NCBI GenBank assembly: GCA_049297495.1
Contig: JBAQUL010000005.1
Location: 3,868-67,867 of the forward strand
Direction: 5' to 3'
Source: Candidatus Moraniibacteriota bacterium
GTDB lineage: Bacteria; Patescibacteriota; Minisyncoccia; Moranbacterales; UBA2206
DNA: 64,000 nucleotides
Below the pieces are notes generated by a model. It saw only the letters and a program-made list of their open reading frames with translations. It was not told the DNA's origin and did no database searches. Position 1 is the stretch's first letter; each line of letters begins with the position of its first letter. A program made the translations under genes and the position numbers. Shown piece after piece: positions 10,680 through 59,569 of the stretch.

Positions 10680-12992
10680 TTACTGGATCATTCTTCTGAA
10701 TTCCTCCTCGTCTATAATCCTCACCCCCAACTCCTTCGCCTTGCCATATTTCGACCCAGGATTTTCCCCGGCAATCACATAGTCGGTATTTTTGCTAACA
10801 GATGAGGAAACACTTCCTCCTGCTTTTCTAATCATATCCTTTAGAACGTCTCTTGTAAAGTTTTCAGCCTCTCCGGTGAGCACAAATGTTTTTCCCCAAA
10901 TCTTTTCATTTACTTCTTTTTTCTCATTATCTATTAAAATTTCCACGCCAGATTCTCTCATTTTCTCTAGCATTTTCACATTTTCCATATCCGAAAACCA
11001 CTGATTCAGACTCTCCGCCGACTTATCTCCAATACCCTTGATTCCCATCCAATCTTCTTTTTTTATCAAAGGAAAAAACTTGATAATGTCCGCCAGATTT
11101 GTAATTTTAAAATTTGACATTTGGTCATTGATTTGAAATTGGAAATTTGGATTTTGAAATTCCCTGTTAATCGCCCCAGTGATTAACAGGGCAGTTTCTT
11201 CGCCAGCATAGCGGATCCCCAGGGCATAGAGAAATTTATCCAATGCAATATGTTTACTTTTTTCAATCGCCAAAATCAAGTTATCAGCTGACTTTTCGGC
11301 AAAGCGCTCAAGCGGTTCCAAATCTCCTTTTTTCAGTTCAAAGATTTCCGCCATATCAGAAATCACTCCCTCGCCAATCAGTTGCTCAACAATTTTTTCA
11401 CCCAATCCGTCAATATTAAAGCCTTTTTTGGAAACAAAATGAATAATTTTTTCTTTCTCCACCGCAAAACATTTCGGATTAGCACAATAGAGTGCAGCGC
11501 TCTCTGTTCCCCCGCCTGCAACGCTATGCTCGCCCGAAGCTGTTGCATCGCTACGAGCGGGCGTAGCATTGCGGGCAGGTTTTCCGCCAATAATTTCCTT
11601 TCTCACTGGCCCACCACAAATCGGGCAAACCTGAGGCATCACAAAAACCTTTTCTTTTCCCGTACGAAGGCCAACTAGTGCTTCGGTTATTTCCGGAATA
11701 ACATCTCCCGCTTTTTGCACAACCACCGTATCCCCGATTCGCACATCCAAACGGCGTATTTCATCTTCATTGTGCAGTGTCGCGCGACTTACCATTGAAC
11801 CAGCCACCAGTACCGGTCGCAGATGTGCTACTGGCGTGAGCGCTCCAGTACGCCCCACCTGCACCCCAATATCTTCTACAACTGTAGTCACTTTTTCAGC
11901 TGGAAACTTGTAGGCAATGCCCCAACGAGGGGATTTTCCCGTGTAACCCAATTTCTCTTGAATTAAGCGCGAATTGATTTTAACCACCACCCCATCAATC
12001 CCGAAATCCTCTTTATCTTTTTTCCTCGTCCACTCCTGGTAATAATTTTCAATCTCTTCGACACTTTCACACAAGCGATAATGCTCATTCACCCGAAAAC
12101 CCAATTCTTCTAGAAGCTCCAGTTCTTCAATCTGTGTTTGTGGTAGTTTAATATTACTTTCCTCTTTGACATTTGGATTTTTGATTTTATTTGACATTGG
12201 AAATTTGGATTTTGAAATTTCCAGCATATCAATATCATACACAAAACACTCCAGCCGACGCTCAGAGGCAACCTTTGGATCGAGCTGTCTGATTGATCCG
12301 GCAGCGGCGTTCCTTGAGTTAGCAAACAATGCCTCGCCTTTTTTCGCACGCAACTTGTTGATTCGCACCAATTCTTTTTTCCCCATAAAACACTCTCCTA
12401 CCACGATGCAATTTATCGGCTGATTTAATTTCAGAGGAATATTAAAAATCGTTTTCAAATTCTCTGTCACATCCTCGCCAATCACGCCATCACCCCGCGT
12501 CGCTCCACGCACAAAGTCACCATTTTCATAGGTCAGAATAACTTTCAACCCATCAATCTTGAGCTCGCAAACATAATCCGGTTTAGTATTTGGTATCGAA
12601 TCAGTATTAAAACCAAATTCTAATTTATTTTTGGGAATTGGAACTTTGGATTTTGAAATTAAGCGAAGCGTTTTTTCTTCCCATTTCACCATTTCCTCCA
12701 AATTGAAAGCATCATTAAACGACCATTGTCTGGTTTTGTGAAGCACTTTTTGAAATTTATCGAGCGGTTTCCCGCCGATTCTTTGGGTCGGAGAGTCGAG
12801 AAATTTCCACTGGGGATATTTCTCCTCCAGCCCTTTAAGCTCTGCCATGAGGGATGAATAAACCTCATCGGTCAGATCTGGCTTATCTAAGTCATGATAT
12901 TCGTGCCGCAATTTATTAATCTCAGCTGAGAGCTTCTGAATCCGCTGCCTAATTTGTTCGTTATTTTCTTGCATAAGGGTATTATAACACAC
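10680..12992 (-). CDS. ligA: NAD-dependent DNA ligase, unusually long at 770 aa, with in-frame repeat-derived insertions; the probable true start is Met7 at 12974
   Basis: Adenylation motif CELKIDGLK, an OB fold, the Zn finger CPICGG...CANPKC, HhH and a C-terminal BRCT domain are all present. The Met7 start MQENNEQIRQRIQKL fits LigA N-termini. Three AT-rich repeat copies (11105-11162, 12165-12222, 12618-12660) are translated in frame as ...EFQNPNFQFQIND..., ...ISKSKFPMSNKIKNPN... and ...ISKSKVPIPKNKLEF.... A GC-rich segment (about 11515-11585) inserts roughly 30 aa (KPARNATPARSDATASGEHSVAGGGTESAAL) between the Cys pairs of the zinc finger. Confidence 0.9.
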   Translation of the reverse strand: MCYNTLMQENNEQIRQRIQKLSAEINKLRHEYHDLDKPDLTDEVYSSLMAELKGLEEKYPQWKFLDSPTQRIGGKPLDKFQKVLHKTRQWSFNDAFNLEEMVKWEEKTLRLISKSKVPIPKNKLEFGFNTDSIPNTKPDYVCELKIDGLKVILTYENGDFVRGATRGDGVIGEDVTENLKTIFNIPLKLNQPINCIVVGECFMGKKELVRINKLRAKKGEALFANSRNAAAGSIRQLDPKVASERRLECFVYDIDMLEISKSKFPMSNKIKNPNVKEESNIKLPQTQIEELELLEELGFRVNEHYRLCESVEEIENYYQEWTRKKDKEDFGIDGVVVKINSRLIQEKLGYTGKSPRWGIAYKFPAEKVTTVVEDIGVQVGRTGALTPVAHLRPVLVAGSMVSRATLHNEDEIRRLDVRIGDTVVVQKAGDVIPEITEALVGLRTGKEKVFVMPQVCPICGGPVRKEIIGGKPARNATPARSDATASGEHSVAGGGTESAALYCANPKCFAVEKEKIIHFVSKKGFNIDGLGEKIVEQLIGEGVISDMAEIFELKKGDLEPLERFAEKSADNLILAIEKSKHIALDKFLYALGIRYAGEETALLITGAINREFQNPNFQFQINDQMSNFKITNLADIIKFFPLIKKEDWMGIKGIGDKSAESLNQWFSDMENVKMLEKMRESGVEILIDNEKKEVNEKIWGKTFVLTGEAENFTRDVLKDMIRKAGGSVSSSVSKNTDYVIAGENPGSKYGKAKELGVRIIDEEEFRRMIQ

Positions 12993-13021
12993 AAAAAGCC
13001 AGAAAATAAACTGGCTTTTTA
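12990..13021 (-). terminator. intrinsic terminator-like hairpin downstream of the repeat-protein gene and immediately upstream of ligA
   Basis: GCCAG-AAAATAAA-CTGGC followed by TTTTT on the plus strand; the reverse complement is also hairpin plus TTTTTGTGTG. A TATAAT hexamer (12980-12985, minus strand) lies just upstream of the ligA Met7 codon. Confidence 0.5.
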
Positions 13022-13042: not shown

Positions 13043-14242
13043 CTAATTGGAAAACTTCAAAATAAGCTCATCGCCGCCAATTTCACCCAAATCATCCGCT
13101 CCCACAAAAACGTGTTTTTTTCCATTAATTTCTCGCACAAAAGCAATATTTTTCCCATCAGTCGAAATAATAGGATTAGCACCATCGCCTAAATCTTTTT
13201 CATTATAAATTACATGCTTTTTGCCATCCACCGTCTTAACATAAGCGAAGCCTTCATCTCCGATCACGGGATCGGATCCCACGCCCAATTCTTTTCCATT
13301 ATGCACAACAACAGTCTCCCCTTTCTCATTTAATCGCATGAAAAAGAAATTGTTTTTTGCGATACCAATTTCCTTTTCCGGAGCAATATTTCCATAATCT
13401 TTCCCGTTAAAAATAACATGCTGCTCCCCATTAACACCTCTGCGATACAGATAATTCTCTCCCGAGCATTGCACGCCATATCCATTGCCAATTTCCTCTT
13501 TATTTCTAAAAACCAGTGGTTCCTTTATTTTATCTGAAAACGAAAGCGAGCTGGCAGGAGAAGAGTAGCACACATAATTATCATCTACAACAAAAGAAGA
13601 GCCGCTTGATCCTAAAGGTTCTCCCTTATACACAATGTGATTCATGCCATCTATTTCACGCAAAAAGGCAATGCTTTGTCCGCTCTTCGACAAAACAACG
13701 GTTTCGCCTTGCCCCATATCTTTTCCATTGTATATAATATGAACATTCCCATCTATTTTCTTTTTGTATGCAATATTATTCCCAGAAATAATAGCAAAAT
13801 TTCCATCTTCAGTATAAGTCTCTCCCAAGTCCTCATTATTGAAAATAAGGTGGGGAGAATTTTCAATATTGCGATAAAAAGCCAAGCTACTACCAGAAAG
13901 CAATGGATGAAAACCCTCGCCGATGTCCTTTCCATCAAAAACAATGTGACTGATTCCATCAACCTCCTTTTCAAAAACCAGCTTCCCCTCAGAAAACTCA
14001 AAATATTGACTGGCCACTTCTCCCAAATCTTCCCCATCATAAATCAAATGAAATTTATCATTCACTAATTGCACAAAAGCCACATCTTTTCGAGCTACAG
14101 CTACATTTGCGCCTTCTTTTTTGCTGCCAAATATTTCAAATCTTCCTTTTCCGAAACTAAGAAACCACACTAAAATTAAAATAGCAATCAAAAATACTGT
14201 AGCCAAAATAAGTACATTCTTACTTGATTTGATAGTTATCAT
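13043..14242 (-). CDS. membrane-anchored tandem-repeat protein with 8-9 repeats of about 37 aa (beta-propeller-like)
   Basis: N-terminal TM segment, then repeats of the form ..IAF.RE.DG..H.I(F/Y)NGKD.G.G (HIVFDGKDIGEG, HLIFNNEDLGET, HIIYNGKDMGQG, HIVYKGEPLGSS, HVIFNGKDYGNI, VVVHNGKELGVG, HVIYNEKDLGDG, HVFVGADDLGEI). Confidence 0.55.
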   Translation of the reverse strand: MITIKSSKNVLILATVFLIAILILVWFLSFGKGRFEIFGSKKEGANVAVARKDVAFVQLVNDKFHLIYDGEDLGEVASQYFEFSEGKLVFEKEVDGISHIVFDGKDIGEGFHPLLSGSSLAFYRNIENSPHLIFNNEDLGETYTEDGNFAIISGNNIAYKKKIDGNVHIIYNGKDMGQGETVVLSKSGQSIAFLREIDGMNHIVYKGEPLGSSGSSFVVDDNYVCYSSPASSLSFSDKIKEPLVFRNKEEIGNGYGVQCSGENYLYRRGVNGEQHVIFNGKDYGNIAPEKEIGIAKNNFFFMRLNEKGETVVVHNGKELGVGSDPVIGDEGFAYVKTVDGKKHVIYNEKDLGDGANPIISTDGKNIAFVREINGKKHVFVGADDLGEIGGDELILKFSN

Positions 14243-14292
14243 TTTTAAAAGTTAACCAATTAACACTTACATGATTTAACCATGAACATTCT

Positions 14293-17184
14293 TTATGGAA
14301 CGGTCACGATCCCAGTATTGCAAGTTCCGGTCGTGCCATCAGCCGCGTACGCGATCACAAAGCACTGATATTGCCCGCTAGCCCATGGACCGGTACCCAT
14401 ATACCATGAACCAGCACTAACACCTCCATAGTCTGGAGCAAATTGCAGGCCTGCCCAATAAGTCGTATCTACAGCCCAGCATCCACTAAAAACTAACCTA
14501 GCAGCATTTGTGGATACCCAAGTCAGTGCAAAATTTGACGTTGAAGAATATGTTGCAACAGGACTGTTAATTGATGTTCCCCACACTATACTACAAGTAG
14601 GCGCGCTTGAAACACAATTGCTTCCAACCCGAGTATACCCATTGGCACATTTATAGCGACAACTCGTAGTGCTTCCGGTTACATCATAGTCAGTTGTTGC
14701 ATCAGCTACAGGAGACCATGAACCACTCCAGGTTTGAGGATAAGAATCTACCGTATTATACATCGTAGTACTTCCGCCCGGTTTAGCGCTACAAGTAAAA
14801 GTCTGGGTGCTTCCCACACAATTCCAGCCATCCCAAGTATAATTGTTTGCGCATTTATAGCGACAGTCCCCAGATGAAGCCTCATCGCTATGAACAGCGC
14901 TTTTCGTTGATGGCTCCCACGTATCACCATCCCATGTCTGAGTGAATGTTGAGCTAGTATTCCAGACAGTTCCTGTTGCCGGCTTATCGTTGCAAGTTGC
15001 AGATCGAGTATTGGGAACACAAATTCCACCAGAACGAGTATAGTTAAAATCGCACTGAAAGTCACAATTATTGGTTATATTGTAATCTCCGCAGCTACGC
15101 TCAGAACAGTAGTAATTTCCCGTACGAGTACTATGCGCAGGAATGGCCTGAGTACAACCAGGATTAGTCCAATCTGAACACTTGTGATAACAGCAAGCCT
15201 TGCTGGTACCTGTAAAGATAGTCGGGTTTGTAACGCCATACTTCCCGGAGTCATAATCACAAACCAACCGACAACGCTCCGTAACGGTATACCCGGGATC
15301 GCCAGCATTGGCGCATTTCGTATTAGACGCGCAAGTACTGGTATTGACCCAACTCGTTCCGTGATATGGATCTAGGGTATAGTTACAAGCTCCTAGCGTA
15401 ACGGTTGGCGCATTATCATGCGATATAAATGGAGGGCTAACAGAAGGACAATTCTCAGAACAACACTTACCGCTTGGATACTCGGGATCGCCAGCATTAT
15501 TAAATGGATTATAATTCGTCGCACATGTCAAATTACATCGTTTAGTCAGAGTATACGGTCCACAGTTGTTATTATTTGCACAACTCGTATCCGCTGTATT
15601 CCAAGAAGCCTTTTTGAAAGGAGATATTGAACAATATGCGTCTGGATTACTTACGATAGTTGGAGGTGTACCGGACTTATCCGGGCACAACTGCTTGCAA
15701 CATCGGGGTTGCGATGGATCTGACTCGGTTGTGTGGTAAGTGGTAAATGACACTCCATCGTAATAACCATTCCTCGGATTCATATCAACATCTATTTTAT
15801 TTTGTGGCGACCATGAATTAGAATTGAGTTTTATTGATGGATCAGAACCTTCAGCTGCCGCCGGGCAAGTCAAACAATATCCCACCGTTCGATATGGATG
15901 CAAGCAAGCATCTCCAGGCACACAAGCCTGCGCTGTTTTACACCAACCAAGACCAGTAGTGATTCCATTTCCACTAGCTGTTACACCATTGGCGATACCA
16001 ACAGCAACAGTATCGGTAACGCTTGGATAATGACTAGAAGAAGATGTCAAATAGCCCTCTCTGTTAACACATTTTTGAAGCGCGCAATTTTCCTCTGGCA
16101 ATTGCGGCGTCCAATTAGGATCCGGCTGGAAGCATTCTGTCCCATTGCAACAGTTATATGATTGTGTCGCTGTAACAGTTCCCCGTGGCTGGCAACCAGC
16201 TTGCCCGGGACTAGTGCAAAGTTTGACACACTCAAGCCCACCCAAAAGATCTCCGGTGTTACAATCAGAAGTTGACTCAATCGTTATCTCCTTATTTGTT
16301 GTTCCAGCTCCAGTTCCACTCGTATCCAGATAAAGCGAATCAAGGCTCAAGGGATATTTATTTCTTGCTTTGATTGTAAAAAAATAATGCTCATTATATT
16401 GCCCGCCAGAATTGGCCAATGAACCGGGAGTAGAACCAAAAAGTGCTCCACTAAGTTTCTCGTCTCCATTTTTAAGTACCACACTAGAGCTAGGCGTCGT
16501 CACTGGCAACCAAAACGGAACAAACACGCCAGAAGCATTTCTATTTGTTGCTATCCACCAGCCATTACCCGAGACCGTATAATCAGCTTTCAAACTTCCT
16601 TGCATCGACTTTCTCACTTCATAATCTTGAATTTTTTTCGTTACATCAGCGCCACCACCGGGAGTGACAGATAGCTTCACATCACACCTATTCCATGTAC
16701 AAGGAGTAACGCCATCCCCGCAATTTGTCACCGTAAAATCACCACTTCCCAATCCACTATTAATCCGATCGCTCACATCTGCTTGAATTTTACGATTTAA
16801 TCCCTGACTAGCAGCATCGACACCTTGACTCCGAAGCTTATACACTTCTGAAAGATAACCGGAAACTATTTGCGTTGGTGAAGGAGAAGCTGCATTAAAA
16901 CATTTTATAGTATTCCCATCGCAAAAACCCGCTTCATTGTAACGTGCATTTTCCGGAATCCTATTCCCGGCAATATTATTATCCAAAGCTTTCAGATTGT
17001 TCAAAAAAACTTCCGCAGCTGAATCTGAAGCCTGATAGGCGCTATAGCCTTTTTTTGAATCAAGCGTGAGGATTGTTCCTTGAATTGCGCGATTGACAAT
17101 CGCGATTGAAATCGCTGAAATCACCAAAAACATAATCAGGACTCCAATCATAAAACTTCCTCGTTTGTTTTTTTGAATCTTCAT
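14293..17184 (-). CDS. giant Cys-rich extracellular protein with a pseudopilin-like N-terminus lacking Glu5; GspK/PilX-like putative pilus-tip protein
   Basis: 963 aa. N-terminus MKIQKNKRGSFMIGVLIMFLVISAISIAIV is prepilin-like but without F1/E5, as in GspK-type minor pilins. It is the last gene of the pilD/pseudopilin operon. It contains more than 60 Cys, repeated C..RC...C modules, and C..C.. modules shared with the 1364-aa and 733-aa proteins. Confidence 0.55.
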   Translation of the reverse strand: MKIQKNKRGSFMIGVLIMFLVISAISIAIVNRAIQGTILTLDSKKGYSAYQASDSAAEVFLNNLKALDNNIAGNRIPENARYNEAGFCDGNTIKCFNAASPSPTQIVSGYLSEVYKLRSQGVDAASQGLNRKIQADVSDRINSGLGSGDFTVTNCGDGVTPCTWNRCDVKLSVTPGGGADVTKKIQDYEVRKSMQGSLKADYTVSGNGWWIATNRNASGVFVPFWLPVTTPSSSVVLKNGDEKLSGALFGSTPGSLANSGGQYNEHYFFTIKARNKYPLSLDSLYLDTSGTGAGTTNKEITIESTSDCNTGDLLGGLECVKLCTSPGQAGCQPRGTVTATQSYNCCNGTECFQPDPNWTPQLPEENCALQKCVNREGYLTSSSSHYPSVTDTVAVGIANGVTASGNGITTGLGWCKTAQACVPGDACLHPYRTVGYCLTCPAAAEGSDPSIKLNSNSWSPQNKIDVDMNPRNGYYDGVSFTTYHTTESDPSQPRCCKQLCPDKSGTPPTIVSNPDAYCSISPFKKASWNTADTSCANNNNCGPYTLTKRCNLTCATNYNPFNNAGDPEYPSGKCCSENCPSVSPPFISHDNAPTVTLGACNYTLDPYHGTSWVNTSTCASNTKCANAGDPGYTVTERCRLVCDYDSGKYGVTNPTIFTGTSKACCYHKCSDWTNPGCTQAIPAHSTRTGNYYCSERSCGDYNITNNCDFQCDFNYTRSGGICVPNTRSATCNDKPATGTVWNTSSTFTQTWDGDTWEPSTKSAVHSDEASSGDCRYKCANNYTWDGWNCVGSTQTFTCSAKPGGSTTMYNTVDSYPQTWSGSWSPVADATTDYDVTGSTTSCRYKCANGYTRVGSNCVSSAPTCSIVWGTSINSPVATYSSTSNFALTWVSTNAARLVFSGCWAVDTTYWAGLQFAPDYGGVSAGSWYMGTGPWASGQYQCFVIAYAADGTTGTCNTGIVTVP

Positions 17185-17213
17185 TTTTTCAAAAATTATT
17201 GCTAAAAATCTGC

Positions 17214-17786
17214 TTAATTATCATCTCTATATTTCGCTCGCATCGAAACGGTCGTCTGTGCTGTCATCCTCGGAGGGCCAGCTTTCACGAGCACTGTCGT
17301 AATCCTTCCAATAAAGGCTCCTCTCACATAAAAATTTCCCGTGACATCACTCGCAATCACATAATTCGTTGGCGCGCCTACTGTTGGAGTCTCAGCTCTT
17401 GAGAGAGTCTTGGCTACGGAATCAAACGTATATGTCACTGTACTGCCAGTAGCATTATTTTTCAAATCAATAGGATTAGTCAGCCCACTTGGTATTGGCC
17501 CAGGAACAAAATCACTCATACGAATATCTTTTGCCAAAGAATTCAAAGCTAGTGACAATTCTTCATTATTGGCTTGATATCTCTTGATTGATGTACGATT
17601 ATTGAGGTAAGCAATAGTAACAGCCACAATCGCCATGGTCAAAATACTCATAACAGCAATGGCTATGAGTAGTTCAATGAAAGTCAGCCCTTGTCTTCCC
17701 GCAGACCCAGTCGAAGTGTTAGCATTGCAAGTAATAGAATACTTTTTATTTTTATTTAAAATATTTTTCATTTTAGTTTTTTGCAT
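17214..17786 (-). CDS. type IV pilin-like minor pseudopilin
   Basis: Class III signal ...GRQG|LTFIELLIAIAVMSIL. The start ATG overlaps the upstream stop in a TAATG arrangement, suggesting translational coupling. Confidence 0.75.
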   Translation of the reverse strand: MQKTKMKNILNKNKKYSITCNANTSTGSAGRQGLTFIELLIAIAVMSILTMAIVAVTIAYLNNRTSIKRYQANNEELSLALNSLAKDIRMSDFVPGPIPSGLTNPIDLKNNATGSTVTYTFDSVAKTLSRAETPTVGAPTNYVIASDVTGNFYVRGAFIGRITTVLVKAGPPRMTAQTTVSMRAKYRDDN

Positions 17787-18364
17787 TACTCTGTATTCCC
17801 CCATGAATAAATAGTATCAGTCATAGTCAAGGTTTTATTGCTAGTAGTCCCCCATGTTACCGTACTAGTTATTATCCTTGAGTCTGTCGCCGGTGTAGAC
17901 GGACCATTGACAAGAGTAATATTTCTTCTAAATGTTGTCACTGTCGTTCCCGCTCCGCATGCGTTACTATAAAAACCAGTCGTATTATTTCTACACAAAG
18001 TTGTCGCGCCACAAGTAGCTGTTGGAGCAATGCTACTAAAATCAGAGCTATAAAAAACACAAAAACCAGATCCATTACCAGGGAAAGGAGAGTCAAATGC
18101 GCTCTTATTCGCAGGACATGGTACGGTCCCATTGATGCATGTTTTCCAATTATTATCCCGAATATTTCTAACGATTTCAATCCCCTCCTGAGCCAAATTT
18201 GAAGCGATAATAATATCTCGTTTGGAAAATTCCGTACGATATGAAGCCGCCATTACAGTCAAAAAGGTGACAAGCACAATTCCCACAATGAAAGTAGCAA
18301 TCACCGCTTCAATGAGCATATATCCCAACCTGTTTTTTTTATTTTTAAAAACTCGCTTTTGCAT
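17786..18364 (-). CDS. type IV pilin-like minor pseudopilin
   Basis: Probable start at MQKRVFKNKKNRLG|YMLIEAVIATFIVGI, a prepilin cleavage/methylation motif; the longer ORF extension overlaps the upstream gene. A Cys-rich C-terminal domain follows. Confidence 0.7.
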   Translation of the reverse strand: MQKRVFKNKKNRLGYMLIEAVIATFIVGIVLVTFLTVMAASYRTEFSKRDIIIASNLAQEGIEIVRNIRDNNWKTCINGTVPCPANKSAFDSPFPGNGSGFCVFYSSDFSSIAPTATCGATTLCRNNTTGFYSNACGAGTTVTTFRRNITLVNGPSTPATDSRIITSTVTWGTTSNKTLTMTDTIYSWGNTE

Positions 18365-18386
18365 TTTATCTTTTTTGTTCAAAAAA

Positions 18387-18914
18387 CTACTTACATATTG
18401 CTTGATAAGGGGTAACTTCCACATTTCGACTTCCTCCATAGCCGGAGCAAGTGATAATCGAGGTTGCTCCACCACCAGGAAGGGTGCCAACGGCATTGGG
18501 AGTGGCATATGTAGCTGACCATGTCGGAGAAGCACAAGTGACTCCACCAGGAATATGAAACGTTTCACTTAACCCAACAGGATTATTAGAAACTATTTGT
18601 ATGGTACCGCCAGTTATTGTAATCGTGAAAGACTCTGGAACACTGCCGCCAAACCCGCCAGCCACCTTCCCCGACAAGGCATAGTTTCGCGTCTTATTAA
18701 TCATCGCTGACACCTGACCACAAGCATTATTTATGTTTGTCTTATTCTTCATTCCACTGAGCGCACTCCAAGACATCGCAGTGACTATGGTGACAACAGC
18801 GATAATCACAATCAGCTCTAAAATTGTAAATCCCTGATTGCCCGAAACAACCGTATTATAAGTAGACTCGTCTCCAGTTGTCACTTTTTTTTTCGAAAAC
18901 AAATTATCAAACAT
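18387..18914 (-). CDS. type IV pilin-like minor pseudopilin with a long leader
   Basis: ...VVSGNQG|FTILELIVIIAVVTIVTA, the canonical G|FTxxE motif. Confidence 0.75.
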   Translation of the reverse strand: MFDNLFSKKKVTTGDESTYNTVVSGNQGFTILELIVIIAVVTIVTAMSWSALSGMKNKTNINNACGQVSAMINKTRNYALSGKVAGGFGGSVPESFTITITGGTIQIVSNNPVGLSETFHIPGGVTCASPTWSATYATPNAVGTLPGGGATSIITCSGYGGSRNVEVTPYQAICK

Positions 18915-18926
18915 ACATAAGTAATA

Positions 18927-19712
18927 CTAAAATAAGTTCAGATACCAGCCCACAATTGGAACATAGTAGAAAAGAGCAAAAAATGTCCCAATAATCAAAA
19001 ATGGAGCAAAAGGAAGTTGACTCTTCATCTCTTTCTTCTTCATTCCAATAAGAATTATACCATAAATAGCACCAATTGCGAAAGCTAGAAAAAGCCCCAG
19101 AAGAATTCTTGGCCAACCCAAAATAAACCCAAGCAGGATAACGAGATAGGCGTCACCCATTCCCATCCATTTTTCCTTTGAGAAATAGGACAAGGAGAAA
19201 AAAAACAAAAATGCACCTCCACCAGCCATAATTCCAGAAACTGCCATTCGTTCCCAGACAGTTGAAAATGTTTGCCCAAAATCAAAATAAACATTGAAAA
19301 TCAAGACCAAAATGATTGCTGGCCAAAGAATCAAATTGGGAATTTCCATGTACAAAATGTCATAGATAAAAATTACCAAAAGAGCGCTAACGAGAGCAAG
19401 CATCACGCCAGTAATCAGCCAGGTCGCAGGATCTTCTAGTCTAAAATATTGATTTGCTAAAAGCGCAAAAACAACGCCCGTGAGCAACTCCACTAAAGGA
19501 TACTGCCAAGAAATTTTTTCTCCACACTCACGACATTTAAATTTCAGAAGGACAAAACTCAAAACCGGGATATTATCATACCAACGAATAGTTTTTTTGC
19601 ATTTTCGACAATGAGAACGCCCCATTATCGTTTCTGCCGTACGAATACGATAAATAACAACATTAAGAAAACTACCAATAATCAGACCGAAAAGAAAAAA
19701 AATGATAAGCAT
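18927..19712 (-). CDS. pilD: prepilin peptidase / N-methyltransferase (A24 family)
   Basis: 261 aa, polytopic membrane protein with CRKC...CREC zinc motifs in the first cytoplasmic loop and the layout of the A24 peptidase family. Confidence 0.85.
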   Translation of the reverse strand: MLIIFFLFGLIIGSFLNVVIYRIRTAETIMGRSHCRKCKKTIRWYDNIPVLSFVLLKFKCRECGEKISWQYPLVELLTGVVFALLANQYFRLEDPATWLITGVMLALVSALLVIFIYDILYMEIPNLILWPAIILVLIFNVYFDFGQTFSTVWERMAVSGIMAGGGAFLFFFSLSYFSKEKWMGMGDAYLVILLGFILGWPRILLGLFLAFAIGAIYGIILIGMKKKEMKSQLPFAPFLIIGTFFALFYYVPIVGWYLNLF

Positions 19713-20650: not shown

Positions 20651-20725
20651 AAAAGCGACAGAGTTGATAGACTAATTATACGTAAGCTAAGTAATGCTTT
20701 CAGTATAGCATAATTTGATCATTCT

Positions 20726-23762: not shown

Positions 23763-23776
23763 AACACGCTCATTGA

Positions 23777-24343: not shown

Positions 24344-24372
24344 AGTAATATCGCCAGTTAAGTTATTTTATA

Positions 24373-27199: not shown

Positions 27200-27634
27200 T
27201 TAGAGCCCTGTTTCAACATAGGTACATCCGGCTTCAGAACATGCAGCAGCCACCGTTCCAGTTCCAACATTACAAGTTAGATTGAGAAAAAATATACCAT
27301 CAGAATTGCTTGTAGTAGCATTAAAGGTTATTGGATTGATAAATGAACACGTTTTTGGAACTAGGTTCGGAAGCATGGAAACAGTTCCTGGGCAAACATT
27401 AGTTGTAGTTGTTCCAAAGCCAGCATTAGTTGGAGCAGCAAGGGTGGAACCCATATCTTCACACATCGCAAACGCCGGCACCAAGCTGGAAATACCAGCC
27501 TTAAACGATGCCGATTTTGCCTTCGCTCTCGCCGCATTCAAACTAACCAACACGATCGATGCCAAAATTCCAATGATCGCAATCACGATCAAAAGTTCAA
27601 TCAGCGTAAAACCTTTTAATTTTTTATTTTTCAT
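27200..27634 (-). CDS. pilA: type IVa major pilin (paralog 1)
   Basis: Start MKNKKLKG|[21 protein letters not shown], a canonical prepilin; 145 aa with C-terminal Cys pairs. Conserved 5' leader with RBS (AACTAGAAAGGTGGGTGAAATTATG). Confidence 0.85.
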   Translation of the reverse strand: MKNKKLKGFTLIELLIVIAIIGILASIVLVSLNAARAKAKSASFKAGISSLVPAFAMCEDMGSTLAAPTNAGFGTTTTNVCPGTVSMLPNLVPKTCSFINPITFNATTSNSDGIFFLNLTCNVGTGTVAAACSEAGCTYVETGL

Positions 27635-27786
27635 AATTTCACCCACCTTTCTAGTTTGCCTCTAAGTCACCAATAAGTAGATGACTAAAAGCATTATTTT
27701 TCCCACTAAATTCCGCTCTAGTCGGGTACCAGCTTCGCTGGACTTAGTAAGATTATTTCCTATGTAAAATCAAATCTTAATTCTTT

Positions 27787-28158
27787 CTATGGGCAGAGAT
27801 CAAAATTAACTCCGGCACTTGTAATAACTGCTCCTGTGCAAGTCGCAGGCAAACTAGCAGGATCAACTGGAGTCACATCAATATCATCAAAACTTCCCGA
27901 TCCATTGCACATATTGTCTGTTGAAGCTGGCGAACTCACAGATGGTGGAACCGCTGTAATGAGCATTGTGTTACCATCGTCAGAACTACATTCACTAGCA
28001 TAAGCAGATTTCAAGCTTGCAACTCCGGATTTGAAATCAGCTTGCCTGGCTTTCGCTCTCGCACTATTTAAACTAACCAAGACGATTGACGCCAAAATTC
28101 CAATAATCGCGATTACAATCAAAAGTTCAATCAAGGTAAAGCCTTTTTTATTTTTCAT
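27787..28158 (-). CDS. pilA: type IVa major pilin (paralog 2)
   Basis: MKNKKG|[31 protein letters not shown]...; the same N-terminal 45 aa and 5' leader as paralog 1 (AACTAGAAAGGCGGGTGAATTATG), with a divergent C-terminal domain. Confidence 0.85.
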
Positions 28159-28192
28159 AATTCACCCGCCTTTCTAGTTTTAAAAATCTTTT

Positions 28193-29416
28193 CTATTTTA
28201 TCTGTCCTGCAATATTATATATCGGCATAAGAACTCCCACGGCCATAAAACCGACACCGAGTCCAATCATAATCATTAAAATTGGTTCAATCAGCGTTGA
28301 CATATTTTTTGCCATCAATTCCACTTCTTGACTATAAAACTTAGTGATATGCCCAAGTACCGCGTCGACTTGACCAGAATCCTCACCAATTTTGATCATA
28401 TGCGAAACCATTGGGGGGAAAAGTGGACTTCTGCGCAAAATGTCACTCATCGTCTCTCCTCTTTTCACATTTTCCGCAGTACGCAAAAGCAACTCTTCAT
28501 AGGCCGAATTTCCAATCACCGCACTAACAATCGTAAGCGCTTTTATAATTGGAATACCACCTGCCAAAAGCACAGCTAAATTTTCAGAAAACCTTGTGAT
28601 ATAAACATACCGAAATAACGTCCCGATTACTGGCAACTTTAATTTAATCTGATCCCATTCTTTTTTCCCCTCTGGCGTGTTGAGATAGTAAGCAATACCA
28701 GCGATAGCGCCAAAAATAAGCACCAGCACTGCCCACCAATATTGCACCATGAAATCCCCGGTTTTGATGAGTACATTCGTATACCAAGGAACTTCTGCTT
28801 CCAACTCCTTAATCATTATAGTTAGCTTCGGGATAATCAGCGTAATTACCAAAAAACCGATAATGAAAAACACGACCATAATTATTGCAGGGTAAAGCAT
28901 GGCCGATTTCACCTTGTTACTCAGATTATAGTTTTTTTCGATATTATCCGCCACATATTCGACAGACTTTCTCAAATTTCCCGAGGCTTCGCCGGCTTTG
29001 ATGATATTGATGACCAAATTAGAAAAGACTTCTTTATGTTTAGCAAGCGCATCAGACAGTGGAACACCATCCTCGATGTCCTTCATTGCTTCAGCCAGAA
29101 TGATTTTCAAAAAACTGCTCGTCGTTTGCTCTCCGATAGCTGCGAGAGCCACCACAATCGGCACCCTTGCTTCAATCAAAATTGCCAGCTGTCGAAAAAA
29201 GATTACCAACTCCTTGCTCGTGACTTTGTCAAAATATTGAGCGACTACTTTTTTGACTGAACTCCCCACCTCTTCCTCAAGACTGATTGGAAAAAGCTCA
29301 TTTTTTTGCAAAATAGCCGCAGCCACATCACGACTAGCTGCGCTGATGTAGCCAGTATTAACTTCTCCTGTTTTTGTTTTAGCTTTAAATTTAAATTTCA
29401 TATTTTTCACCCTCAA
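28193..29416 (-). CDS. pilC: type IV pilus inner-membrane platform protein (GspF family)
   Basis: 407 aa with two GspF repeats and three TM segments. Confidence 0.85.
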   Translation of the reverse strand: MRVKNMKFKFKAKTKTGEVNTGYISAASRDVAAAILQKNELFPISLEEEVGSSVKKVVAQYFDKVTSKELVIFFRQLAILIEARVPIVVALAAIGEQTTSSFLKIILAEAMKDIEDGVPLSDALAKHKEVFSNLVINIIKAGEASGNLRKSVEYVADNIEKNYNLSNKVKSAMLYPAIIMVVFFIIGFLVITLIIPKLTIMIKELEAEVPWYTNVLIKTGDFMVQYWWAVLVLIFGAIAGIAYYLNTPEGKKEWDQIKLKLPVIGTLFRYVYITRFSENLAVLLAGGIPIIKALTIVSAVIGNSAYEELLLRTAENVKRGETMSDILRRSPLFPPMVSHMIKIGEDSGQVDAVLGHITKFYSQEVELMAKNMSTLIEPILMIMIGLGVGFMAVGVLMPIYNIAGQIK

Positions 29417-29507
29417 CCATTTTTTTTATTTTTCAGAAATTTCCAGTCTTATGACTTTTTTATTATACCATCATTTCAAATAAATAGAAAATTCAGTAAC
29501 TTCTCAA

Positions 29508-30578
29508 CTAGTATCTGAGCAGTGTTTCGAAATTTTTTGTGTCCCTTGCATAGGCCGAAGCGACTTCAAGAGAAACCAAACCTCTTCTGACTAAATCGGC
29601 CAGTGAGCGATCCATTGTCACCATCCCCTCTTGAGAACTCGTTTCAATCACATTACCAATCTGATAACTTTTGTTTTCTCGGATCAAGTTTTCCACCGCA
29701 TGATTTTTAATCATGATTTCAACCGCCGGAGACCGACCCTCGTCAACCCTGGGGATCAAACGCTGAGACACGACTGCCAAAAGCACGCTGGCCAATTGGG
29801 CTCGGACTTGATTTTGCTGATGCGCAGGAAAAACATCCACGATACGATCAATTGTTTGCGGGGCATCATTGGTGTGAAGTGTCCCAAAAATCAAATGCCC
29901 GGTTTCAGCCGCTGTCATTGCCGCGGAAATCGTGTCCAAGTCTCGCAGCTCACCAATAAGCACTACGTTCGCATCCTCGCGAAAAAGTCCCTTTAGCGCC
30001 AGCTGAAAAGAATTCGTGTCTTGATAGACTTCTCTTTGATTGATAATTGAGCGATCCTGCTCATAGACATATTCAATTGGGTCTTCAATAGTCAAGATAT
30101 GCTTTTCTTGGTTATGATTAATATCATCAATCATAGCGGCTAGTGTTGTCGATTTTCCATGCCCCACCGGTCCTACCATTAAAAATAATCCTTGCGAAAC
30201 TTTGGTGAAATCATAAAGAATTTCCGGCACACCCAATTCCTCCAACGTACGAATACCTTTGGAAATTAGACGAAATGCCATACTTGTATAGCCCTGTTGA
30301 AAAAAAGCATTAACGCGAAAACGCACCTTGTCCTCAAAATTATAGGAGAGGTCGACTTGCCCTTCTTTTTCTAATTGCTTTTTCTTCTCTTCATTCAAAA
30401 CAACATCGCAAATCTCACGTGTAACTTCAGGTGTAATTATTTCATCTTGATTGAGCGAGATGAGTTTTCCGTCAATTCGATAGGTCGGATAGCGACCAAC
30501 CACCAAATGCAAGTCTGATGCTCCGCGTTGCGCGGCGATTCTTAATAAATTTTTTATTTTTTGTTCAGTTCTTAACAT
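29508..30578 (-). CDS. pilT: twitching-motility retraction ATPase
   Basis: 356 aa; Walker A GPVGHGKSTT, Asp box, His box, and PilT length. Confidence 0.85.
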   Translation of the reverse strand: MLRTEQKIKNLLRIAAQRGASDLHLVVGRYPTYRIDGKLISLNQDEIITPEVTREICDVVLNEEKKKQLEKEGQVDLSYNFEDKVRFRVNAFFQQGYTSMAFRLISKGIRTLEELGVPEILYDFTKVSQGLFLMVGPVGHGKSTTLAAMIDDINHNQEKHILTIEDPIEYVYEQDRSIINQREVYQDTNSFQLALKGLFREDANVVLIGELRDLDTISAAMTAAETGHLIFGTLHTNDAPQTIDRIVDVFPAHQQNQVRAQLASVLLAVVSQRLIPRVDEGRSPAVEIMIKNHAVENLIRENKSYQIGNVIETSSQEGMVTMDRSLADLVRRGLVSLEVASAYARDTKNFETLLRY

Positions 30579-30584
30579 AAATGT

Positions 30585-30974
30585 TTAGCTATTACCAATA
30601 AGCAAATTTATTTTCTCCAAAACTTCTGATGGCGTGAAATGAGATTTGATCAAATAATCCTTCGCTCCCAATCCCATCCCCTTGTCAATCTCGGCCTTTT
30701 GACTTAAGTTAGTGAGCAAGATTACCGGGATATTCTTTAGTTTATCATCATTTTTTATCCGTTCCAAAACTTCTAGTCCGCCAAGATAGGGCATGATAAT
30801 GTCTAGCAAAATCAAGTCGGGAATTTGTTTTTCTTCTTGTAGTTTTTTTAGCGCGTCAATTCCATTATTCGCACTGATCACATCAAAGCCGGACTGCGTG
30901 AGTTTTGTGTGATAGATGTCCATGACGAAATAGTCATCCTCGATAATCATGATCTTCTTTTTCTGCTCTTCCAT
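30585..30974 (-). CDS. single-domain CheY-like response-regulator receiver
   Basis: 129 aa; MIIEDD...LILLDIIMP...K, with the conserved D/D/T/K positions of a REC domain. Confidence 0.75.
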   Translation of the reverse strand: MEEQKKKIMIIEDDYFVMDIYHTKLTQSGFDVISANNGIDALKKLQEEKQIPDLILLDIIMPYLGGLEVLERIKNDDKLKNIPVILLTNLSQKAEIDKGMGLGAKDYLIKSHFTPSEVLEKINLLIGNS

Positions 30975-31003
30975 AAAATTATAGTTAAAAAATAAAAATA
31001 TAC

Positions 31004-32677
31004 TTAATCGTTTTCCTCAGTCAGGGTTGTGAAATTGCACTCTGTTACTCGCTCTACCTCTTCAATTGTTGTGAGCCCTTGGATAATCTTCAATATTCCA
31101 TCCTGCTCAATCGTAATCACCCCCATCCGATCGCGCTCTTTTTTGAGCAATTCTTCACTGCCTCTTTTTTCAATAATAATATTCCTGATTTCCTCTGTCA
31201 CCGGGACTGCTTCATAGATCGCTACTCGCCCTTTAAGTCCCGTTCCGTTGCAAGCGTCACACCCAGCGCCATGATAAAACTTGAGTCCATCCGCCAATTT
31301 TATCCCATAATTCTCCAATTCTTTTTCGTCAATATTCTTTATTTTTTCCGCTATTCCGCCGCTAACCACAGGAGAAACCGTAATCTCTTTTTTGCATTTT
31401 TCGCAAATTCGCCGCACCAAACGCTGGGCAATCACCATTCTTAGTGACGAAGAAAGCAAGAATGGCTCAATTTTCATATCAATCAACCGCGGAATGGCGC
31501 CGATAGCTGTGTTTGTATGCAACGTAGAAAACATCAAATGCCCCGTAAGAGCAGCGTGAACCGCCAGCTCTGCTGTTTCGGCGTCACGGATTTCTCCCAC
31601 CATAATCACATTGGGATCTTGACGCAAAACCGTTCGCAGACCTGAAGCAAAAGTATAGCCTATTTCCGGCTTGATCTGGCTTTGATTCAGGCCTTCGATG
31701 AAATATTCCACCGGATCTTCCAGTGTTATGATATTTCGCTCTTCGTTATTTAAAATTTTTAAAAGAGTGTAAAGTGTGGTTGATTTTCCACTACCAGTCG
31801 GACCAGTCATCAAAATCATCCCATATGTCTCACGAATTGCCACACTAATATCATGCTTTGCCATCCCGACGAGTCCAAGATTATCAATACTACTCGTACC
31901 ACTATCCTTGTCCAAGATTCTCATTACAATCTTTTCTCCGCCAACAACAGGCAAAGATGAGACGCGAAAGTCGATATCTTTTTTGTTAAAATTCAGTCGA
32001 AACCGACCATCTTGCGGCTTTCTCTTTTCATCAATTTTCAAATTGGCCAAAATTTTTATGCGAGAAATCACCACCGGACCAATCTCGATCGGAAAAATCA
32101 AGCTGACATGCAGAACACCGTCCACTCGAAAACGGACACGATAATCTTTGTCCATCGGTTCAATGTGGATGTCGCTAGCCTTTCCTTCCACAGCATGACT
32201 AATAATCACTTCCACTAACTTCGTAACAGGCGCGTCTTTCAAAATTTCCGCTTCCTTTTTCTTTCCTGAAACAGCACTATTACTATCCTCAATCGCTAAT
32301 TGATCCTTTTCATCTTCGAAAGAGTCAACTGCTTCCTTCAACGCCTCATTCGTTTCATTATAGAAAGCAAATAAATCAGCGAATACTTTTTGCGAGACTG
32401 CATAAGTCTCAATTTTGCCCCTCTCTTTTTCCGCCACAAAATTCAAAGTGTTCAAAGCTTGCGCGTCTTCCGGATCAGTCATTGCCACCTTCAAAATATC
32501 TCCCGACTTACCAAAAACCATCATACCATATTTCTCTGCAACTTCCTTGGGAATCATATTGACAAGACTGCCCGCAACAGTTTTCGGCGCCTCACGCAAA
32601 ATATTCTGTCGAAGACCATCCGCAGCATTTCCATCGACAGCCTCTTCATTTTTCACATCATCATCTTTCGGAGTCAT
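31004..32677 (-). CDS. pilB: type IV pilus assembly ATPase (GspE family)
   Basis: 557 aa; N-terminal GspE_N domain, Walker A GPTGSGKSTT, and a C-terminal tetracysteine motif CEKC...CDAC. Confidence 0.9.
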   Translation of the reverse strand: MTPKDDDVKNEEAVDGNAADGLRQNILREAPKTVAGSLVNMIPKEVAEKYGMMVFGKSGDILKVAMTDPEDAQALNTLNFVAEKERGKIETYAVSQKVFADLFAFYNETNEALKEAVDSFEDEKDQLAIEDSNSAVSGKKKEAEILKDAPVTKLVEVIISHAVEGKASDIHIEPMDKDYRVRFRVDGVLHVSLIFPIEIGPVVISRIKILANLKIDEKRKPQDGRFRLNFNKKDIDFRVSSLPVVGGEKIVMRILDKDSGTSSIDNLGLVGMAKHDISVAIRETYGMILMTGPTGSGKSTTLYTLLKILNNEERNIITLEDPVEYFIEGLNQSQIKPEIGYTFASGLRTVLRQDPNVIMVGEIRDAETAELAVHAALTGHLMFSTLHTNTAIGAIPRLIDMKIEPFLLSSSLRMVIAQRLVRRICEKCKKEITVSPVVSGGIAEKIKNIDEKELENYGIKLADGLKFYHGAGCDACNGTGLKGRVAIYEAVPVTEEIRNIIIEKRGSEELLKKERDRMGVITIEQDGILKIIQGLTTIEEVERVTECNFTTLTEEND

Positions 32678-33465
32678 TATTTTGCAAGTATAAAAGGATT
32701 ATTCCCTCTTTTTTGTCCCGGCATAACATTATTAACATCAACATTTCGACTACTGCTTATTTTTCCAATAATCTGACTATCAAAACTTCCCGTCGAAAAA
32801 ATTTCATTACTAAGATCAGCATCAGTCAATCTCTTCGGTTCATTCAAATAATTAAACTCCAAAAGCATATTTGCTTGCAACGAATCACTTACCTCCTGAT
32901 TTTCTGTCATCAGCGTTTTTATCTCTAGTCCTGCAAATTTATTAAATCTTTTCAACTTTTGAATTTTCGCAATCAACACTTTTATATTATCATAGCCACC
33001 AACAACTGAGTATTTTACTTTCAATTTCTTTGGTACTAGCTTCGGTGCGTTAGGCACAATAGCTCCTGTGACAGGATCGGTAATCGGCGGTGCAATTGAA
33101 AGCGTACTAACCTCTGCAGCGACAGCAGCATCTGACAACTCGGAAACCGAAATTTCCAATACGGCCAAAGTGCTTCCTGTTGCCTGTAAGTTTAGATTTT
33201 CAATAATTTTTTCTTCCTCCTTGCTCTTGGGAATGTAATCAAAAACAACTGCATTTTGGGTAGTATTACTATTTAGCTCTGATCCCAATTTCTCTGCGTT
33301 ACTGATATTGCTATCCAGCTTAGCCATGAGCGCCTCTTGCTCTGCCATTTTCGCACTCCTTTCTCTGACACCATCCACGCCGTCATAGGCAGGATAGACG
33401 TACCAAATAATTGCGACTACGATAACAATGATTAGTCCCGGAGCTAATAGTATTTTTATTTTCAT
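32677..33465 (-). CDS. pilO: PilO-like pilus assembly protein
   Basis: 262 aa; N-terminal TM segment, a coiled coil, and a C-terminal alpha/beta domain. Its stop overlaps the pilB start. Confidence 0.6.
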   Translation of the reverse strand: MKIKILLAPGLIIVIVVAIIWYVYPAYDGVDGVRERSAKMAEQEALMAKLDSNISNAEKLGSELNSNTTQNAVVFDYIPKSKEEEKIIENLNLQATGSTLAVLEISVSELSDAAVAAEVSTLSIAPPITDPVTGAIVPNAPKLVPKKLKVKYSVVGGYDNIKVLIAKIQKLKRFNKFAGLEIKTLMTENQEVSDSLQANMLLEFNYLNEPKRLTDADLSNEIFSTGSFDSQIIGKISSSRNVDVNNVMPGQKRGNNPFILAK

Positions 33466-33470
33466 ATTTT

Positions 33471-33983
33471 TTATTTAATCGTTAAAACAACAGGGAAATT
33501 AATCATCCTTCTTTTCGCATCAAGCTTTGTCTCCCCTGCAAGGACAGTTGAAAAATAGTCATCCCCCTTAAAGCTCAAAATTTGCTTTGCCACCGTGTCA
33601 TAACTGTCAGCAAAGCAATCAATCTTAATTATCTTGGCCGCTTCATCATAGGTATAGGATTCAAGATATACGCCATCAATCATCACACTTTCGATATTTT
33701 CCAGATCCCTCCCATTATCCCGTTCCATTGCAAGAAGCTCATTTGAAATCGTCAATCTATTTTGAAAATCCAAAACTTTTTTGGAATCGCCAATGGTAAA
33801 CATATTAAATTTAGCCGCATACTCTTCTTTAGCAGTCGCTAAATCGGTCCCCAGCTTATTCCCATAAAAAATCATTCCTCCATAAATCAGCAAGACAACA
33901 AAGAATATCACTAAGAGAACAGTAGTGCCTGTTCCAAGCATTTTCGTATTTTCTCTGTCTGTAACTAAATTTATATTTGCCAT
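33471..33983 (-). CDS. pilN: PilN-like pilus assembly protein
   Basis: 170 aa; single TM segment plus a periplasmic domain. Confidence 0.6.
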   Translation of the reverse strand: MANINLVTDRENTKMLGTGTTVLLVIFFVVLLIYGGMIFYGNKLGTDLATAKEEYAAKFNMFTIGDSKKVLDFQNRLTISNELLAMERDNGRDLENIESVMIDGVYLESYTYDEAAKIIKIDCFADSYDTVAKQILSFKGDDYFSTVLAGETKLDAKRRMINFPVVLTIK

Positions 33984-34072
33984 TTTATTATTTCTACCTC
34001 GCTAAATTCGTCACTCATTCTGGACGACCCTGCCCAAAAGCAAGTTCAGCGAAATATCTTAAATTGTTTTAA

Positions 34073-45321: not shown

Positions 45322-45490
45322 AATCTTGAACTATGATTTTTATGATTATCAACAAATTTCAAAATCCTAATATCAAATTTCCAATCAAGTCTTAAATTCA
45401 AATGACAAAATAATTTTCTGGCTTATTTTCTTGGATTTTGAATTTTGGTTTTTGTTTGACATTGAAAATTAGAAATTGAAAATTAATCCT

Positions 45491-45931: not shown

Positions 45932-46102
45932 ACGTTTTAGCTTAATTGTTTATACTGGTTTATCAAAAATATCATTATTTACATCATCCCTTTGAAAAAT
46001 ATAGTCAGTAATTTCCATTTTTTATCCAAAACGCACAGCTTCAATTCGAAAATTAAGAAATTTAAGCATTGTTTGGAAATTGGAAATTGGAAATTTCTCC
46101 CC

Positions 46103-49367: not shown

Positions 49368-49542
49368 TTTGTTGTTTCTAATTTTTTATAAATATTAAAA
49401 AGATAACTGTGACTTTCACTTGTTTAAATTATACAACAAAAAAACAATTCTTGCTACAAGACAAATAACTTCCTGCTGTGGATAACGTAAAAATATGATA
49501 TACTAATCTTACAATGAATTTAAAGATTAAAAAAAATGATCA

Positions 49543-49690: not shown

Positions 49691-49716
49691 AATAATAAAA
49701 TAAATATATTAAACCT

Positions 49717-59557: not shown

Positions 59558-59569
59558 TAAAAACTAAAA

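Follow-up and report, generated by a model that had tools for sequence, protein, structure and literature searches.

A minor-pilin gene string with a large cysteine-rich fourth subunit, a candidate tip adhesin, in a Moraniibacteriota genome

Introduction

GspHIJK and FimU-PilVWX form priming complexes, and they are the basis of the analogy drawn below for a four-protein tip complex. Their largest members, of the GspK/PilX type, are expected to lack Glu5. The present analysis concerns a 64,000-nucleotide stretch of DNA ("the window" hereafter) from a Candidatus Moraniibacteriota bacterium (assembly GCA_049297495.1, contig JBAQUL010000005.1, positions 3,868 to 67,867 of the forward strand), a member of the CPR (Candidate Phyla Radiation, or Patescibacteria). 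It carries a string of minor-pilin genes, the fourth of which encodes a 963-residue protein with a long cysteine-rich tail. The reading favoured here, with moderate confidence, is that this region encodes a priming/tip module for a type IVa-like pilus, with the tail of the 963-aa protein as a probable tip adhesin.

The closest described counterparts are PilX1 and PilX2 of TM7x (Nanosynbacter lyticus, Saccharibacteria), minor pilins of large size whose signal peptides are non-canonical and whose C-terminal domains are lectin-like or β-propeller; host binding requires PilX2 (PMC11623550). The 963-aa protein resembles them in its CPR origin, in being the largest minor pilin of its locus, in its non-canonical signal peptide, and in the combination of an N-terminal lollipop helix with an added C-terminal domain, for which a host-binding role is proposed in TM7x and genetically shown for PilX2. 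In contrast, no sequence relationship was found between them, and the modules differ: a β-jelly-roll/lectin-like domain and a 7-bladed RCC1 β-propeller in TM7x, tandem Cys-rich modules and a β-sandwich on an Fn3-like carrier here.

Modular pilins are reported to be widespread, with multi-repeat examples in CPR bacteria as well (Raynaud et al. 2021, PMC8179133). Like PilB and PilC of Streptococcus sanguinis, the 963-aa protein consists of a carrier pilin module onto which effector modules are grafted, and is expected at the tip. The signal peptide of PilB, however, is a canonical class III one that includes Glu5, and its vWA module can be recognised; in the 963-aa protein, Glu5, an N_methyl match, and any InterPro-definable module are all lacking. 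The survey of modular pilins (PMC8179133) would have missed it, because IPR012902 was required. The modular tip-pilin design is already known, and the 963-aa protein represents no new kind of machine or system.

With GspK of the type II secretion system (T2SS), PilX of the Pseudomonas type IVa pilus (T4aP), and ComGG, the 963-aa protein shares the fourth place of a quartet, the lack of Glu5, the rank of largest subunit, and a presumed capping position. Unlike GspK, it has no α-domain, its globular part being predicted as a small sheet followed by an Fn3-like sandwich; unlike GspK and PilX, it matches neither T2SSK nor PilX_N and is about three times longer. The role proposed for it, that of a large adhesin on a minor-pilin tip complex, is the role of PilY1/PilC. 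PilY1, however, is a non-pilin with a C-terminal β-propeller (PF05567), whereas the 963-aa protein possesses its own pilin-type helix and no PF05567 domain. Finally, large Cys-rich extracellular proteins proposed to serve in attachment have been reported in CPR bacteria (Peribacteria; PMC4736985). They are likewise large, very rich in Cys, predicted as extracellular, and variable (between strains in their case). They were not linked to pilins, whereas here the Cys modules are fused to a minor-pilin carrier within a pilus operon.

The minor-pilin gene string

Six co-directional genes occupy the minus strand from 19712 to 13043: pilD, those of three small minor pilins (pp1, pp2, and pp3), the 963-aa gene, and a gene for a 399-aa repeat protein (Table 1). 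PilD belongs to MEROPS family A24, with both Pfam domains above their cutoffs (PF06750, 115.5 bits; PF01478, 53.7 bits) and a CxxC...CxxC arrangement in its sequence. Its gene is found directly 5' of the minor pilins, at 63-94% identity, in each locus that includes this upstream sequence (tblastn).

Table 1. Coordinates of the minor-pilin string, the domains of the 963-aa protein, and the pilus machinery in the window; a slash follows the Gly that ends a leader.
Feature	Position	Strand	Motif or evidence
pilD, bifunctional prepilin peptidase, 261 aa	18927..19712	(-)	Pfam A24_N_bact 1.2e-33, Peptidase_A24 3.1e-14
pp1, minor pilin 1, 175 aa, GspH/FimU position	18387..18914	(-)	28-aa leader, then G/FTILE
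pp2, minor pilin 2, 192 aa, PilV/GspI/ComGE position	17786..18364	(-)	leader MQKRVFKNKKNRLG, then YMLIE
pp3, minor pilin 3, 190 aa, GspJ/PilW position	17214..17786	(-)	...GRQG/LTFIE
963-aa open reading frame	14293..17184	(-)	fourth gene past pilD
963-aa protein, carrier domain, residues 1-288	16321..17184	(-)	leader MKIQKNKRG, then SFMIG
963-aa protein, family-conserved Cys-rich region, residues 291-493, 14 Cys	15706..16314	(-)	motifs YNCCNGTEC, CALQKC, PYRTVGYC
963-aa protein, three tandem "CC...C" modules of 59-90 aa, residues 494-722, 25 Cys	15019..15705	(-)	Smith-Waterman
963-aa protein, two tandem ~68-aa 4-Cys modules, residues 723-857	14614..15018	(-)	TC..KP..WNT..QTW.G.W.P...CRYKCA.GYT..G..C
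963-aa protein, C-terminal β-rich domain, residues 858-963, 4 Cys	14296..14613	(-)	β-strands only, pLDDT ~46-64
399-aa membrane-anchored repeat protein	13043..14242	(-)	..IAF....DG..H[IV]I[YF]NGKDLG..
Terminator-like hairpin, 11-bp stem	12992..13021	(-)	just 3' of the 399-aa gene; candidate end of the transcription unit
Type IVa-like pilus machinery	27200..35209	(-)	Pfam PilM_2, PilN, PilO, T2SSE (two genes), T2SSF
pilM, then pilN, pilO, then pilB	pilM 35209..34073; pilB 32677..31004	(-)	transcription order
Response regulator, then pilT, pilC	pilT 30578..29508; pilC 29416..28193	(-)	transcription order, 3' of pilB
Two candidate major pilins	28158..27787; 27634..27200	(-)	MKNKK..G/FTLIELL

Because the starts were fixed by reading the DNA, pp1, pp2, and pp3 can all be said to possess Gly-1 and Glu+5, and pp1 alone Phe+1. 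The N-terminus of pp1 reads MFDN...GNQG/FTILE. The start of pp2 is reassigned to the ATG at 18364, 22 nt past the pp1 stop, instead of the GTG at 18568. All three display a class III signal peptide (PF07963/TIGR02532), that of pp2 by eye only: pp1 and pp3 score 21.9 and 21.3 bits against Pfam N_methyl (cutoff 21.2), and pp2 has no N_methyl match although its ...NRLG/YMLIE motif is visible. The C-terminal half of pp2 contains 6 Cys, and its orthologue in the closest relative (locus L005) is 196 residues long. The pp2 stop and the pp3 start overlap as TAATG at 17788-17784, the pp3 ATG sharing its A with the pp2 stop, and this one-base overlap is repeated in the gene coordinates of L005. An earlier note, made from the letters of the window, had called the prepilin peptidase, this overlap, and a 963-aa reading frame lacking Phe1 and Glu5, all of which are borne out; of the three "canonical" G/FTxxE pseudopilins it listed, the Gly and the Glu stand throughout and the Phe in pp1 only.

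Sub-threshold NCBIfam matches hint at the places of the three small proteins within a quartet. That of pp1 to GspH (1.4e-5), along with one to ComGD, covers the N-terminal helix only; pp2 matches ComGE (2.6e-4) and PilV, and pp3 matches PRK10557 (5.4e-6) and GspJ (9.7e-5). In gene order, the best of these matches are GspH, ComGE/PilV, and GspJ, and the K/X slot is therefore left for the 963-aa protein. A gap of 50 nt devoid of any terminator-like site separates its reading frame from that of the 399-aa protein. The hairpin beyond the latter is proposed from its position alone, because terminator-like sites in this region are no more numerous than in shuffles.

Gene order and relatives of the 963-aa protein

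Full-length homologues are few, 15 among 5.8 billion proteins. A profile of the N-terminal part reaches further, with 108 relatives among 1.84 billion representatives, 65 of them at E<=1e-10. Since 40 of the 72 relatives examined do not exceed 400 residues, many standing alone at 240-370 residues, the N-terminal part is a self-contained protein and the tail an add-on. Longer relatives bear varied tails, as in P0080, where Fib_succ_major is fused to the carrier domain. Species-representative genomes with the family number only six (search with alignment A2), at least three of them labelled Moraniibacteriota.

Synteny was assessed by tblastn of the window proteins against fetched loci, scoring only those with upstream sequence. 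The order pilD-pp1-pp2-pp3-big gene is found in L001/L002, L003, L004, L005/L008, L009, L010, L012, and L013, followed downstream by ligA-gatC-gatA in most of them. Distant stand-alone relatives keep this place. P0089 (333 aa), which has a sub-threshold PilX_N match, is the fourth gene past pilD and three genes of ~165 aa; P0047 (240 aa) likewise, with an AAA-domain gene intervening just before it. P0071 (294 aa) is preceded by three small genes, with no pilD in its locus. This is the sole such case, in L015, whose gene table shows no A24 peptidase.

The 963-aa protein begins with MKIQKNKRGSFMIGVLIMF, with a leader and Gly followed by Ser at +1 and Gly at +5. Of 68 relatives with a hydrophobic N-terminus, 58 start with a basic leader (median 12 aa) whose last residue, directly ahead of the hydrophobic stretch, is Gly. 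At +1, 41 of these 58 scorable N-termini have Ser and 15 have Phe, and none has Glu at +5. PilX_N (PF14341) is the commonest Pfam family among 41 aligned relatives, with five members matching below its cutoff. These matches sit on the N-terminal helices (e.g., residues 12-55 of P0089) and span profile positions 1-44 of 51; neither the 963-aa protein nor its 14 close homologues match PilX_N.

Compared with the core quartet (FimU/PilV/PilW/PilX, or GspH/I/J/K), the gene order and the loss of Glu5 are conserved, with the H/I/J labels coming from sub-threshold N-terminal matches. We thus assign this family, from gene order and sequence, to the PilX/GspK/ComGG position among the minor pilins of the lineage, without a GspK or PilY1 fold. 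The earlier description as GspK/PilX-like holds for the fourth-gene position and the missing Glu5; it does not extend to a T2SSK match or to the GspK fold. That proposal had been staked on synteny with pilins and on a pilin-like N-terminal helix. Three small genes precede the big gene wherever upstream sequence is present, and the helix is predicted, as described below; neither check refutes it.

The N-terminal carrier domain

Residues 1-290 are well conserved in alignment A1 of the full-length homologues, with the motifs IPEN, KARNK, and LDSLY, and the tail has diverged faster (67% identity vs 81% for the carrier in L005, 59% vs 72% in L009). AlphaFold2 (AF2) prediction of residues 1-288 from 41 sequences yields a mean predicted local distance difference test score (pLDDT) of 85.4 and a predicted template modelling score (pTM) of 0.75. 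The model starts with a 62-residue α1 helix (residues 8-69, pLDDT >90 over most of it), continued by a small β-sheet (93-136) and an Fn3-like β-sandwich (150-275). In the sense of PMC8179133, the protein can be counted among modular pilins: it possesses the helix 8-69 and a sheet, its carrier exists as a stand-alone protein, and its modules are common to non-pilin lectin and CARDB proteins.

Database searches return little for this protein. Scanned against Pfam and NCBIfam, the protein and its 14 homologues give no meaningful match, and sequence searches of the PDB with the N-terminal profile and the tail return nothing apart from one chance match to uL30 (E 0.14). GspK membership, judged by T2SSK models and by a pilin fold with an inserted α-domain, fails for the 963-aa protein, and neither it nor the 399-aa protein matches PF05567 of PilY1/PilC. 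Neither the carrier domain, with its pilin helix and Fn3-like part, nor the Cys modules belong to a described family.

The cysteine-rich tail

With 56 Cys (5.8%), fewer than the count of more than 60 given in the earlier note, the 963-aa protein still has the highest Cys fraction of the 43 open reading frames (ORFs) in the window, where the median is 0.83% (P ~2e-25 by a binomial comparison with the pooled rate). The excess may have come from the 1364-aa ORF described below, which has 65 Cys.

The tail is composed of four successive regions (Table 1). The first is conserved in the family, Cys 308, 319, 345, 346, 351, 367, 372, 415, 421, 427, and 437 being invariant or nearly so in alignment A1; it has no database match, and AF2 confidence is low. 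The three CC modules that follow are related to each other (CC1-CC2 z 8.6, CC1-CC3 z 4.9, CC2-CC3 z 4.1, against 300 shuffles). The two 68-aa modules, W1 and W2, are closer still (z 15.2 vs shuffles), and their DNA copies (D6) are 73% identical over 70 aligned nt. Tandem Repeats Finder detects no DNA tandem array, the repeats of the operon existing at the protein level only. The last domain is probably an Ig/PKD-like sandwich according to the model, and bears a weak resemblance (E 0.007) to domains repeated in the 1364-aa protein.

The 68-aa module is not confined to this protein. A hidden Markov model (HMM) of it finds 6-7 copies in P0139, which also has a C-type lectin domain; three copies in P0140, a canonical N_methyl prepilin that also harbors a Gly_rich_2 domain; and three copies in P0141, alongside CARDB. 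Within the 963-aa family the copy number varies, and some members have none. P0080 and P0140 exemplify the shuffling of modules among CPR pilins.

Several other origins of these repeats were considered and rejected. Homology of the CC modules to the 68-aa module is not supported: the 68-aa HMM misses the CC modules, and only a weak CC3-W2 signal is seen (z 4.2). A likeness of the CxxGYxxxGxxC stretch to Sushi or EGF domains was dismissed by eye, since the order and spacing of Cys are not collinear; P0141 shows a weak Sushi match (22.0 bits), no stretch of which passes alone. A diversity-generating retroelement was sought and not found: no template/variable repeat pair touches the 963-aa gene, and no reverse transcriptase was matched among the window ORFs scanned.

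In composition, the tail is acidic to neutral (pI 4.1-6.9 by segment), with a single Lys/Arg in its last 106 residues. Ser, Thr, Asn, and Gly together make up 38-46%, and aromatic residues 6-15% by segment, with their peak in the last two segments. These properties bear on the idea that the pilus serves chiefly for DNA uptake (competence), the 963-aa protein being a ComGG/ComZ-like subunit whose tail captures DNA. CPR bacteria lack nucleotide synthesis and are presumed to take up DNA with their pili. ComZ of Thermus has a role in DNA uptake. The sub-threshold matches of pp1, pp2, and pp3 to ComGD, ComGE, and ComGF point in the same direction, as does the precedent of Thermus ComZ, which is a large modular minor pilin (PMC8179133). 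Such a tail is, however, unfavourable for DNA binding, and its 68-aa module is found alongside a C-type lectin domain in P0139. PilT and PilM/N/O, moreover, indicate a retractile pilus of the T4aP type, though such pili can take up DNA. Competence as the chief function is thus considered improbable.

The 399-aa repeat protein

The last gene of the string encodes a protein with a single N-terminal hydrophobic segment, an ordinary anchor without a Gly cleavage motif. An ad hoc HMM resolves nine clear repeats and a degenerate one, with a period of ~34 residues (31-42). The anchor agrees with the earlier description, which had given 8-9 repeats of 37 residues. One repeat (352-380) passes the test for Pfam PD40 (PF07676), with 24 bits against a cutoff of 20.9, and the fold is, from the repeat pattern, probably a β-propeller.

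This protein might play the part of PilY1 as a β-propeller adhesin that docks onto the minor-pilin complex, in which case the operon would mirror fimU-pilVWXY1. Its gene is indeed the fifth after four minor pilins, joined by the short gap mentioned above, its PD40-type repeats are β-propeller-like, and a β-propeller is present in TM7x PilX2 (PMC11623550). The distribution of the gene argues otherwise. Of the relatives, just the closest ones (L005/L008, L009) have it next to the big gene; it is absent 3' of that gene in L001, L003, L004, L010, and L013, and the L006 and L007 homologues have no type IV pilus genes nearby. In addition, the protein has no PilY1/Neisseria_PilC match, and its ordinary anchor lacks the Gly cleavage motif. 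A PilY1-like part is the least probable of the alternatives weighed here. The gene, listed with the operon in the earlier note, is a lineage-specific accessory neighbour, probably co-transcribed, outside the conserved module.

Proposed role of the locus

In the proposed priming/tip module, PilD would cleave each of the three small prepilins past its conserved Gly, and probably cut the 963-aa protein too. The four proteins would join through their N-terminal helices into a complex that starts pilus polymerisation and ends up at the distal tip. The 963-aa protein would fill the PilX/GspK/ComGG position on top of the filament and cap it; because it lacks Glu5, it is proposed to need no partner above. 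The pilin-type helix and the Fn3-like domain would serve as carrier, from which the 670-residue tail, presumably stabilised by disulfides, would project as the ligand-binding part. Its likeliest ligand would be a glycan or protein on the surface of a host or partner cell, and PilT-driven retraction would then draw the cells together.

Several results weigh against this scheme. The 963-aa protein matches none of N_methyl, TIGR02532, PilX_N, T2SSK, and the NCBIfam pilin models, and among its relatives the best PilX_N match (22.5 bits, E 1.2e-4) remains under the 25.5-bit cutoff. Fold searches with the confident N-terminal model retrieve Fn3 domains only, and no pilin, GspK, PilX, or ComGG. The full-length AF2 model (15 sequences) has a pLDDT of 56 and a pTM of 0.30, and Foldseek returns weak Ig/PKD/Fn3 matches with it, none at E<=1e-3; this model of the tail is too unreliable for a binding fold to be assigned. 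Nor was any enzyme of disulfide formation identified in the window.

Part of these results would be explained if the 963-aa protein were an uncleaved bitopic membrane protein, either an adhesin of the cell surface or an assembly-platform component, that is co-regulated with the minor pilins and never enters the filament. Such a protein would need no Phe1, Glu5, N_methyl match, or pilin-like fold, and the analogous PilX1 and PilX2 of TM7x are not predicted as PilD substrates (PMC11623550). The basic leader ending in Gly, however, is conserved in 58 of 68 relatives, and a helix of 62 residues goes far beyond the needs of a membrane anchor. The fourth place in the minor-pilin string is also strictly kept, by the distant stand-alone relatives too, and the absence of Glu5 is what established knowledge leads one to expect of a GspK/PilX-type tip pilin. 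An uncleaved membrane protein is therefore regarded as unlikely, though less so than the two alternatives above, and a fourth minor pilin at the tip is preferred.

Pilus machinery and other genes of the window

A complete pilus machinery lies upstream of the minor-pilin string on the same strand (Table 1). Between the major pilins and pilD (19859-26997), a glycosylation island encodes methyltransferases, an AsnB-like amidotransferase (630 aa), GT4 and GT2 glycosyltransferases, and, immediately past the second major pilin gene (pilA2), a 567-aa polytopic membrane protein without Pfam match. Most of its genes recur upstream of pilD in L005, and pilC-pilA-pilD are contiguous in L001, L003, L004, L010, and L013. 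The island may be a pilin glycosylation cassette.

Two other Cys-rich proteins are encoded on the minus strand. The 1364-aa ORF (35834-39928), directly upstream of pilM, has 65 Cys and no Pfam match, hydrophobic segments near its N-terminus and at about residues 441-461, and 159-nt tandem repeats at 36020-36496. It contains several "PTC...LTW.S.NA" domains, and it is these that show the weak likeness (E 0.007) to the end of the 963-aa protein. A second Cys-rich surface protein associated with the pilus cluster may be encoded here. The third, a 733-aa ORF (61721-63922), has 38 Cys (5.2%), no Pfam match, and an internal duplication (62070-62150 / 63480-63560); it shares the motif "VCGSAAG...LC..G.....GAGPWSWTC" with the 1364-aa protein.

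Also on the minus strand, an 819-aa protein (42862-45321) displays TrwB/TraG-D type IV coupling-protein domains (E 7e-7, 3e-6), a hint that a system of conjugation type or for DNA transfer lies close to the pilus cluster. A family of short AT-rich repeats resembling TTTGACATTGGAAATTTGGATTTT (D3, I1, I2) occurs at 11075-12654 and 45344-46096, in the ligA coding sequence and in an intergenic stretch. LigA is 770 residues long here and 688-733 in relatives, and its odd in-frame stretches FQNPNFQFQINDQMSNFKI and KSKFPMSNKIKNPNVK suggest that small insertions are tolerated in frame. Finally, two pairs of direct repeats (48 nt, 85%; 66 nt, 77%) link 49541-49695 to 59410-59562, 9.87 kb apart; one set precedes a gene for a PMT_2-like glycosyltransferase, and the other a 405-aa ORF (59570-60787).

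Concluding remarks

CPR bacteria, or Patescibacteria, account for a large share of bacterial diversity and live attached to other cells, and little is known of how they recognise their hosts. Their best-supported attachment device, from the work on TM7x, is the type IV pilus. The present locus provides a concrete tip-adhesin candidate in an ultrasmall lineage without cultured member, and its portable Cys-rich modules are open to expression and ligand-binding tests. It also matters for annotation, since this fourth minor-pilin family escapes the standard pilin signatures.

A further step, taken here tentatively and with more doubt than belief, would join these observations: the Cys modules may be undescribed disulfide-stabilised recognition units that Moraniibacteriota and neighbouring CPR bacteria shuffle among tip pilins, lectin, and surface proteins, the set of modules on the PilX-position pilin determining to which host cell the episymbiont can adhere. 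If so, the 963-aa gene would be a host-range determinant of an uncultured lineage, and its carrier domain would be the mark of a CPR-specific family of fourth minor pilins, one that current pilin signatures overlook.

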